Part shown: in pieces, positions 43,826 through 45,773 of the stretch | How the letters are laid out: each line of letters begins with the position of its first letter | How positions within the stretch are numbered: position 1 is the first letter of the stretch | Origin: an uncultured Spirochaetales bacterium | GTDB taxonomy: Bacteria > Spirochaetota > Spirochaetia > SPDA01 > CAZSGZ01 | Assembly: GCA_964458315.1 (NCBI GenBank) | Contig: CAYWIK010000002.1 | Location: forward strand, 6,433-70,432 | Reading direction: 5' to 3' | DNA: 64,000 nt | The notes under the pieces: model-generated | The model's database searches: none | Seen by the model: only the letters and a program-made list of their open reading frames with translations | Told to the model about the DNA's origin: nothing | Made by a program: the position numbers and the translations under genes

Positions 43826-44635
43826 TTACGAATTTTTTTCCGATTTTTTTCGAAAAATTGACGTTTTTATTATCCCGGTTTCGCTGAAGGCAATCCGAAC
43901 GGTGATCATGATAGTCAGACCGGTACTTAAAATGATCGTTACGCCGATAGCGATCATAATCGCCATTTGATACTTCACCGCGACCAAAGGATCGGACCCT
44001 CCGAGTATCTGTCCGGTCATCATTCCCGGCAGAGAAACAATTCCGGTAGTCGCCATAGTCGCGATGAGAGGAGCGAATGCCTGCTTTAGACTGTCCCTGA
44101 AGTAGGGGATAATTCCTTCAAGGAGGGTCGCGCCGTTTGCAAGGGAATAGAGATACCGGTTTTCATTTCTGCGGACCTGCTTGTAGAAGGAAGTGAGTCC
44201 GACAATGTTTCCCCGGAGGGAGTTGCCCAAAAGCATCCCTCCGATGGCAATGAAATATTTGGCATCGAAAAGATTATCCAGCCGGATTACGACCGCGTTA
44301 AAATAAAGAAGAATCGATCCGGCAATCAGCAGGATGGAAAGGAATGCCGGTACGATAAGAAGGAGGACCTTCAATTCACTCCGATAGATAACCGTGACGG
44401 TAGCACTCCCGACCATCACGAAGAACCAGGCAATGTTGAGGCCGGGGTGATTCAAGTCAAAAATGAATTTAAGAAAAAATCCAATAAGAAGGAGCTGCAC
44501 AGTCATCCTTCCTACGGCAAAGAGAAGAGATTTCATAAACCGCAGCTTCAAAAGAATACTCGCCCCCAGTGGCAGCAGGAGAAGAAGATAGCAGAGGCCT
44601 AAGGAAATATAGGAGATATCGACCGCGCCGCTCAT
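43826..44635 (-). CDS. ABC transporter permease, UPF0014/FetB (YbbM)-like
   Basis: 269 aa with about 7 TM helices; adjacent to and 4-nt overlapping with an ABC ATPase gene, as in fetAB. Confidence 0.7.
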   Translation of the reverse strand: MSGAVDISYISLGLCYLLLLLPLGASILLKLRFMKSLLFAVGRMTVQLLLIGFFLKFIFDLNHPGLNIAWFFVMVGSATVTVIYRSELKVLLLIVPAFLSILLIAGSILLYFNAVVIRLDNLFDAKYFIAIGGMLLGNSLRGNIVGLTSFYKQVRRNENRYLYSLANGATLLEGIIPYFRDSLKQAFAPLIATMATTGIVSLPGMMTGQILGGSDPLVAVKYQMAIMIAIGVTIILSTGLTIMITVRIAFSETGIIKTSIFRKKSEKNS

Positions 44636-45318
44636 GCTTCCTTCTCCCGTGTTTTTATTCCACCTCTTTCTTTTTGCGGGTCCATAGGTTTTTCATCGAA
44701 CCGGATGGTCCGGACTTTTTTTCTTTTTTCCCATTCCGGATCATGAGATATTATGAGTTCCGTTGCATTATCCAGGTCCAAATAATATCGGATGACTTTC
44801 TCTTTAAGCTCTGCATCTAAGGACGAGGTTATTTCATCGAGAAAATAGATGTTTCGGTTCGAAAGCAGTGAGATAATGATGCCGATTCGCTGCTTCTCGC
44901 CTCCGGATAGTTCCTCGAATTTTTTATCCAGGATTCCGGTTCCGAGCTCAAAATGAGTAACGAGTTGCTTCAGCTTCCGTTTGTCGAATACCCCGCTATT
45001 TCCCTTATATGAAAATATCCTTTCTACAAGGGGCTGTATCGACCCTTCACCGATATCAAGATTTTGGGGCACGTACGCGATCTCTTTTCGAATCCTCCAG
45101 AATGACTTCTTGTCAAGGAGCTCTCCTCTGTATACCAGATCGCCGTTGTCGATTGGAAAAAAGCCGAAGAAGGTCTTTAAAACCGTTGATTTTCCCGTTC
45201 CGGAAGGACCGAAGAGCAGGACTTTCTCCCCTCTATAAACAGTAAGGCTAAAATCCGAAAGGATAGGTGTACCCTCGGCCCGCAGATCGACGTGGTGCCA
45301 TTCTAAGAGCGCTTCGAT
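44632..45318 (-). CDS. ABC transporter ATP-binding protein, FetA (YbbL)-like; full-length frame but no canonical start codon
   Basis: Frame is open from 45330 to 44632 and encodes LLEWHHVDL...GEKVLLFGPSGTGKST (Walker A), LSGGEKQR (signature) and FLDEITSSLD (Walker B). AGGAGG RBS at 45325-45330 followed by ATC codons; no ATG, GTG or TTG before Walker A. The listed ORF (44632..45072) begins at an internal GTG. Confidence 0.55.
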   Translation of the reverse strand: MEALLEWHHVDLRAEGTPILSDFSLTVYRGEKVLLFGPSGTGKSTVLKTFFGFFPIDNGDLVYRGELLDKKSFWRIRKEIAYVPQNLDIGEGSIQPLVERIFSYKGNSGVFDKRKLKQLVTHFELGTGILDKKFEELSGGEKQRIGIIISLLSNRNIYFLDEITSSLDAELKEKVIRYYLDLDNATELIISHDPEWEKRKKVRTIRFDEKPMDPQKERGGIKTREKEA

Positions 45319-45773
45319 GATAAGCCTCCTAACCGGTCGAGAGTTTCGAAAAGGTCCGCTGCTTTTTCTTTAGAAAGAAGACTGAACCGCAGTTCCAAAG
45401 GTTTGCTCCCTTCCTCGGATATATTCATCCGAATTATAGGCAGTGACGGGAGCGTGAGACGGTCGAGGAACCCCCGCCGTTTCTCTCTGTCGACGTTTCG
45501 TATACAGTCGAGGCGTACAACATACTCTAATCTCTGCACTTCCTGCTGTTTGGATTTACTGCGGAACCCTTTCACGATCGAAGACAGAAAATCCCGTTTC
45601 GGGTTGGTTTGAAAAAAGAACCGGGTAGGGGTAAGAAAAAAAAGCCCGACAGTATTTTTTTCTATGCCTTCCATTGGCCCGAGATTCTCGCCGAGGGAAA
45701 ACCAAATAATTTCCTCTTCGATCTCCCGTTGAATCGACTCCCAAAATTCATCTTTTTTTTCCGCTTCCGCCAT
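45303..45773 (-). CDS. hypothetical protein (156 aa)
   Basis: ORF with a charged N-terminus, upstream of the fetA-like gene and sharing its stop region; no recognisable motif. Confidence 0.45.
   Translation of the reverse strand: MAEAEKKDEFWESIQREIEEEIIWFSLGENLGPMEGIEKNTVGLFFLTPTRFFFQTNPKRDFLSSIVKGFRSKSKQQEVQRLEYVVRLDCIRNVDREKRRGFLDRLTLPSLPIIRMNISEEGSKPLELRFSLLSKEKAADLFETLDRLGGLSSKRS

Follow-up and report, generated by a model that had tools for sequence, protein, structure and literature searches.

The confirmed near-cognate initiation codons of Escherichia coli, those of infC and pcnB, are both AUU (10.1101/063800); in these genes a conserved AUN codon takes the place of AUG, translation is kept low and IF3 discriminates (10.1101/063800, PMC2268962). 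AUC in the same bacterium initiates with an N-terminal methionine at about 1-2% of the AUG level (10.1101/063800). In Staphylococcus aureus, conserved AUU and AUA starts combined with a strong Shine-Dalgarno (SD) sequence reach about 10% of the AUG level and are sensitive to IF3 and to the growth medium (PMC13009471); the group of such genes in S. aureus and Bacillus subtilis comprises ccpN (AUA), cvfC1 (AUU), infC (AUA) and citZ (AUA), with an extended SD (PMC13009471). Ribosomes that have terminated, in turn, can scan the mRNA bidirectionally and initiate anew (PMC2268962). There are very few natural bacterial genes for which a start at AUC has been demonstrated or strongly inferred, and our literature search likewise found few such cases. 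Here we describe a candidate for this class in a stretch of 64,000 nucleotides (nt) from an uncultured Spirochaetales bacterium (assembly GCA_964458315.1, contig CAYWIK010000002.1, positions 6,433 to 70,432 of the forward strand), hereafter the window, whose own numbering is used throughout. Its GlmS is 70-76% similar to those of metagenome-assembled genomes labelled Spirochaetota, Spirochaetales, Spirochaetaceae or Alkalispirochaetaceae, which marks the organism as an uncultured spirochete. On its minus strand a gene for a FetA-like ATP-binding cassette (ABC) transporter ATP-binding protein (44632..45318) lacks any canonical start codon ahead of its Walker A motif, and the functional ATPase is probably translated from a near-cognate AUC (45318-45316).

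The ABC reading frame is open from 45369, immediately after a TAA (45370..45372) that lies 17 codons 5' of the proposed start, and closes at a TGA (44634-44632). Its 5' part reads AGA AAA AGC AGC GGA CCT TTT CGA AAC TCT CGA CCG GTT AGG AGG CTT ATC ATC GAA GCG CTC TTA GAA TGG CAC CAC GTC, and no ATG, GTG or TTG occurs in frame from the opening to the conserved N-terminal domain. The first canonical codon is an internal GTG (45070..45072), which encodes the valine of the Q-loop, lies 3' of Walker A and is followed by a TTG at 44781 and an ATG at 44685. A sequence-only reading of this region had recognized the intact frame, but had let it begin at 45330, thereby omitting 13 further codons that are equally devoid of ATG, GTG and TTG, and had taken the GTG at 45072 for the sole canonical codon in frame rather than the first. 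Its description of the product as a complete ABC ATPase stands, as all motifs are intact: Walker A (GPSGTGKS, 45210-45187), Q-loop (VPQ, 45072-45064), signature (LSGGE, 44910-44896), Walker B (IYFLDE, 44850-44833), D-loop (SSLD, 44826-44815) and H-loop (SHD, 44748-44740). The occurrence of these six motifs in the expected order places the protein in the Pfam ABC_tran family PF00005, whose profile it matches with 88.5 bits (cut-off 25).

At the 5' end of the gene the sequence AGGAGG CTT ATC ATC GAA GCG, as read earlier on the minus strand, was found unchanged. It contains an SD hexamer AGGAGG (45325..45330), a 6-nt spacer CTTATC (45319..45324) and the proposed initiation codon ATC (45316..45318), which is codon -36 when counted from the Walker A glycine. 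The spacer itself holds another ATC (45321-45319), 3 nt past the SD. The sequence-only reading had left the choice between spacings of 3 and 6 nt; it is the ATC at 6 nt that corresponds to the start of the orthologues and is conserved together with the SD in five lineages, whereas the ATC at 3 nt is kept outside the window only in L004. The earlier estimate of about 229 amino acids (aa) for the product accordingly applies to the first ATC (45321), and 228 aa followed by the TGA are obtained from the conserved one (45318). The previously noted overlap with the stop of the preceding gene is also borne out: the upstream open reading frame (ORF) ends at a TAG (45305-45303) located 10 nt past the ATC codon, so that the ATC-started gene overlaps it by 16 nt.

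Comparison of the start region across related contigs, all of which share the order divergent Orn/DAP-decarboxylase gene, hypothetical ORF of about 155 aa, fetA, fetB, ssb and trpE, brings out the conservation of this site (start positions are given in codons from the Walker A glycine, and percentages as aa identity of FetA to that of the window). L004 (83%) is identical to the window in having AGGAGG CTTATC ATC, with the start at -36 and a GTC at codon -27. The same position -36 is taken by the ATC of AGGAGG CCGGCC ATC in L005 (67%) and L179, of AGGAGG GCAGTC ATC in L173-176 and of AGGAGG TACGTC ATC in L177, and all of these have a GTG at codon -27. The element AGGAGG-N6-ATC is thus invariant in five lineages (the window, L004, L005/L179, L173-176 and L177), with a spacer that varies at five of its six positions, and the hexanucleotide ATCGAA is invariant in their alignment. 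The ATC-bearing loci besides the window (L004, L005, L173, L177 and L179) show about 66-88% nt identity to it, indicating that a non-canonical codon and a correctly spaced SD have been kept together across diverged lineages. A further relative, L008 (57%), has AAGGAG ACGTAG ATT with the start at -44 and a GTG at codon -27. Here the ATT directly follows the TAG of the upstream ORF, in frame with fetA, and the AAGGAG stands at the same 6-nt distance, within an upstream-ORF tail unlike that of the other lineages.

Out-groups possess canonical starts at precisely the position of the ATC. These are an ATG at -36 in L010, L011 and L012 (48%; encoding P0008; codon -27 GTA), an ATG at -36 in L178 (codon -27 GTT) and a GTG at -36 in L009 (49%; P0006; codon -27 GTT). 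In the protein alignment the isoleucine of ATC 45318 shares a column with the initiating methionine or valine of P0006, P0007 and P0008, which begin at codon -36 with GTG in the first and ATG in the other two. More distant homologues (L093-L097 and L013-L015) have ATG starts at -33 to -37, with that of L013 at -47, and a scan of metagenome contigs recovered only relatives with at most 48% identity, all with canonical ATG starts. Among the out-groups, fetA overlaps the upstream gene by 17 nt in L010 and by 4 nt in L178, and the two are 10 nt apart in L009. The sequence-only reading had held that an ATG at this position in orthologues would speak against AUC initiation. Such codons do exist in the out-groups (ATG in L010 and L178, GTG in L009), but because every close orthologue has ATC they mark the position of the start and are not proof of an error.

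Substitution patterns, estimated by the Nei-Gojobori method with a Fisher test, indicate that the gene is maintained. Between the window and L004, both of which are devoid of a canonical start 5' of Walker A, the whole gene shows a ratio of nonsynonymous to synonymous rates (dN/dS) of 0.25 (44 nonsynonymous and 43 synonymous differences; Fisher p = 4e-9), and the 82 codons 5' of GTG 45072 taken separately give 0.27 (p = 0.0035). Against L005, the whole gene and its parts are saturated at synonymous sites (proportion of synonymous differences about 0.75), with a proportion of nonsynonymous differences of 0.16-0.22. Since neither of the two lineages under this purifying selection has a canonical start, the gene has been maintained in that state and a recent inactivating mutation is excluded.

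The same alignments locate the point at which constraint passes from one frame to the other. On the 5' side of the ATC the frame of the upstream ORF is conserved (A-x-D/E-F/L-F/L-x-x-L-x-R-L/I-G-G), and the ABC frame is noise, with an in-frame TGA in L004. Of the three sites that vary in the 16-nt overlap on its 3' side, two fall on third positions of ABC-frame codons (Pro and Leu) and change synonymously there, but alter the tail of the upstream ORF (Arg/Leu and Ser/Cys/Phe). In the upstream ORF the A of the ATC falls on a third position where a change would be synonymous, and it nevertheless does not vary. Codons -34 to -30, which encode PLLEW, differ between L008 and L005 by four synonymous changes; as L008 has no overlapping ORF there, the retention of these residues implies that ribosomes read this part in the ABC frame, and the only start-like codon 5' of it in L008 is the ATT beside the AAGGAG. 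What the comparisons show is an intact gene with a conserved ATC that is orthologous to canonical starts and at which constraint passes from the frame of the upstream ORF to that of the ABC ATPase. Translation would then begin at or just 5' of codon -35 in every lineage, where the codon is ATC (ATT in L008), and, judging from these comparisons, the AUC was already present in the ancestor of a small clade of uncultured Spirochaetota and is no recent lesion.

These observations lend support to the rare AUC initiation that had been offered as one of three explanations by the sequence-only reading. In the mechanism proposed here the perfect SD AGGAGG, 6 nt upstream, would position the 30S subunit on the AUC, where the initiator tRNA would be accommodated, with the first residue presumably being formylmethionine. 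The N-terminal tryptic peptide expected from ATC 45318, with methionine, would be MEALLEWHHVDLR, and that from the first ATC MIEALLEWHHVDLR. Ribosomes terminating at the upstream TAG, 10 nt past the ATC, may in addition re-initiate at this codon, coupling the two genes. In evolutionary terms an ancestral ATG or GTG at codon -36 would have given way to ATC, or in a single lineage to an ATT whose position has shifted, with selection keeping the replacement. By analogy with infC, pcnB, ccpN and cvfC1, so weak a codon probably limits the ATPase subunit to far less than an AUG start would yield and might render its synthesis sensitive to IF3. We infer AUC initiation, the contribution of coupling and the attenuated expression from the comparisons described above.

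The site would be the same kind of feature as the AUU starts of infC and pcnB and the AUA or AUU starts of ccpN and cvfC1; what sets it apart is the AUC codon, the transporter-ATPase gene and the placement of the start within the end of an upstream ORF. It resembles infC and pcnB in having a conserved near-cognate AUN in the place of AUG, and differs from them in that the codon is AUC instead of AUU, the gene encodes a transporter ATPase instead of a factor of translation or RNA metabolism, and no autoregulatory logic is evident. With the ccpN group it shares a non-canonical start and a strong, correctly spaced SD that are conserved across species, the means of recognition (conservation of the SD and the start codon) and an expected attenuation to about 10% of AUG. 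Unlike those starts, which were mapped by Ribo-Ret and tested with reporters, the site in the window is known from sequence comparison; its SD is a 6-bp core and not an extended helix, it is embedded in the 3'-terminal part of the upstream ORF, and its host is an uncultured spirochete. The upstream stop, which follows the start by 10 nt in the window and immediately precedes it in L008, has the geometry of re-initiation by bidirectional scanning (PMC2268962); the classical cases use AUG or GUG, whereas coupling here is predicted from the geometry. The comparative signature is that of the earlier studies, with the SD and the near-cognate codon both conserved and the spacer free to vary, to which a clean switch of frame constraint is added, and the locus is hence a good candidate for confirming AUC initiation and coupling at a non-AUG start. 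Otherwise the stakes are modest, as this is one transporter operon of an uncultured lineage with a substrate that is only guessed.

Several observations weigh against initiation at the AUC. The hexamer AGGAGG is in itself weak evidence in this genome, being present at 49 sites in the window as opposed to about 32 expected (about 1.5-fold), of which only 10 precede a start-like ORF; the argument rests on its conservation and spacing and not on its presence. It also doubles as the Gly-Gly codons of the upstream ORF, and the T and C of the ATC begin a Ser codon (TCG) that is invariant in that ORF, because of which the conservation of the ATC could partly stem from the upstream frame. The GTG at codon -27, present in L005, L173, L177, L179 and L008, where a canonical start at -36 is missing, and absent from the three out-groups that have one, hints, over only five or six lineages of which three are close relatives, that it may serve as a start in the sister lineages; this association may reflect shared ancestry or an auxiliary start. 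Finally, AUC is a very poor start in E. coli, which is awkward for a subunit expected in the same amount as its permease.

A more elaborate interpretation turns this inefficiency into a selected regulatory device. Through the AUC or AUU start, production of the ATPase would be linked to that of the upstream protein, which has a predicted PH-like fold, and to IF3 or the growth state, and the sisters might use AUC(-36) and GUG(-27) as two starts that yield two N-terminal isoforms. In a broader version the clade as a whole would have relaxed start-codon discrimination, with many genes initiated at AUY and overlooked by gene finders. We regard this proposal as speculative and on balance doubtful. 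In a window-wide scan for other combinations of an SD and an ATY start on long ORFs without a canonical start, only one match was obtained, at 6921 (plus strand, 6905-6923), where AGGAGG stands 10 nt before an ATT in an open frame of 245 codons without an early canonical start. This frame is antisense to a 397-aa ORF (5985-7178) and is probably a shadow ORF, and with this dubious match alone there is no sign within the window of a genome-wide usage of AUY.

Alternatively, translation could begin farther 3' at another weak or non-canonical site, such as the CTG at 45285 or, in the sisters, the GTG at -27, to give a product without the first beta-strand, in which case the conservation of the ATC and the SD would be due to the upstream ORF. 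The distribution of the -27 GTG described above, its choice by gene callers (with products of 217-218 aa) and the fact that AGGAGG as well as the T and C of the ATC are coding positions of the upstream ORF would all fit such a start. In the window and L004, however, codon -27 is GTC (45289..45291 in the window), and these two remain under purifying selection nonetheless. The CTG at 45285 is replaced by CTC in L005, L177, L179 and L008 and by CTT in L173, and inspection by eye revealed no SD before it. Moreover, codons -35 to -28 vary synonymously in the ABC frame while changing residues of the upstream frame. The persistence of PLLEW in L008 without any overlap and the invariance of the A of the ATC, both described above, likewise speak against such a start. 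A downstream start is hence unlikely.

A further possibility is that FetA needs no start of its own, being synthesized as a fusion to the upstream PH-like protein through a programmed -1 frameshift in the overlap or, in L008, through read-through of the TAG; such a product would contain the peptide LIIEALLEWHHVDLR. The ABC frame is indeed at -1 relative to the upstream ORF and is open for 17 codons 5' of the ATC in the window and for 79-92 in L005, L173 and L177. The TAG that ends the upstream ORF of L008 shares the frame of fetA, and in L005 and L173 a T_TTT_TTT (Phe-Phe in the upstream frame) precedes the ATC by 36 nt and would formally allow -1 slippage into the fetA frame. Yet no heptamer of the form X_XXY_YYZ is found in the window, L004 or L177, and L004 has a TGA in the ABC frame 3' of the position of the T-run. 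The ABC-frame residues 5' of the ATC, which would form the linker, are not conserved, and the RNA structure predicted around the start is no better than that of shuffled sequences (minimum free energy -28.6 kcal/mol; mean of the shuffles -30.7; z = +0.54), leaving no sign of a stimulatory structure. As separate lineages would, moreover, require separate recoding mechanisms and the out-groups have two separate genes with canonical starts, we consider a fusion very improbable.

The view that the gene is a pseudogene, in which loss of the ATG silenced the ATPase of the exporter and the open frame is a remnant, corresponds to the inactivating ATG-to-ATC mutation considered by the sequence-only reading. 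It draws on the lack of a canonical start, the inefficiency of AUC in E. coli and the truncation of all automated annotations found, but it is contradicted by the dN/dS of 0.25 (p = 4e-9) between two lineages that share this lack. The frame and the catalytic motifs have also stayed intact through synonymous saturation with respect to L005 and L008, and the downstream permease gene is intact and joined by its ATGA overlap, all of which render inactivation highly improbable. The last explanation of the sequence-only reading, a sequencing or assembly error in which an ATG was misread as ATC or the frame shifted near an out-of-frame ATG (45301-45299), has nothing in its favor beyond the anomaly itself and that ATG, and can be practically dismissed, as the start region is identical to that of the window in L001 (Logan, ERR1878617), L002 (Logan, ERR2407577) and L003 (the ENA assembly of ERR2407577), that is, in two runs and with two assemblers, and ATC recurs in the five further loci listed above. 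With 10 differences from the window in 1948 positions, all outside the start region, L003 is a distinct strain; the missing canonical start is no sequencing error. The ATG at 45301 was also considered as a start in its own right and rejected: it forms part of the conserved Glu-Trp codons (GA-ATG-G), opens an ORF of just 17 codons and is absent in L008 and L010.

The lack of a canonical start has practical consequences for annotation. Every public gene call found for the fetA-like gene in clade members without a canonical start is truncated. P0002 and P0003 are 146-aa calls that start at the internal GTG 45072 and therefore lack Walker A; calls of 146, 166 and 167 aa begin 3' of this motif, and those of 212 and 217-218 aa are devoid of the first beta-strand. 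Because of such truncated calls automated annotation would rate the exporter as defective.

Directly 3' of the fetA-like gene lies the gene for a FetB-like permease of the UPF0014 family (43826-44635, minus strand; 269 aa; Pfam PF03649, 222.6 bits), the ATG of which overlaps the TGA of the fetA-like gene as ATGA and is preceded by the SD-like GGAGAAGGAAGC. This pair is reminiscent of the E. coli iron exporter FetAB (YbbL/YbbM), where the gene of an ABC ATPase likewise precedes that of a UPF0014 permease and its stop codon overlaps the start of the latter; the E. coli ybbL gene has a canonical start. The top NCBIfam match of the ATPase is FetA (NF007601, 110.2 bits; cut-off 292), with profile positions 1-193 aligned to residues 6-197, and that of the permease is FetB (TIGR00245, 96.8 bits; cut-off 410). 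Both fall far under the equivalog cut-offs, and the labels FetA-like and FetAB-like, as used in the sequence-only reading, are hence right at the family level only. Iron export by the pair is only a guess. Outside the clade, the nearest organism-named homologues of the ATPase (45-51% identity; in the list P0013-P0094) are archaeal, from Methanosarcina and Methanococcoides, which suggests an inter-domain transfer of the fetAB-like pair.

The upstream ORF (45303..45773, minus strand) encodes a conserved hypothetical protein of 156 aa, and its family comprises only 16 proteins in a collection of 5.8 billion sequences clustered at 90%. Its most distant member, in L180 (GCA_964543975.1, CAZJBZ010000019.1, 2501-5459), adjoins the same divergent Orn/DAP-decarboxylase gene and is followed by a Peripla_BP_2/FecCD/ABC_tran importer in place of fetAB. 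The small protein may consequently be linked to metal-transport operons generally, or simply to the decarboxylase gene. On the other side, the permease gene is followed by ssb (43314-43748, minus strand), directly after which, before trpE, a consensus scan located a terminator-like perfect hairpin of 16 bp with TTTTT (43242..43277, minus strand). This is a probable intrinsic terminator that would end an ORF156-fetA-fetB-ssb transcription unit; the promoter and terminator scans were otherwise at background level and informative solely for this hairpin. Beyond the upstream ORF, the G+C content, about 0.45-0.50 in the fetAB region, climbs to 0.61-0.66 at 47500-49000, inside an ORF on the plus strand (47218-49197) whose syntenic counterpart in L003 has ILVD_EDD Pfam domains, and this jump may reflect either a foreign origin or a strong compositional constraint.

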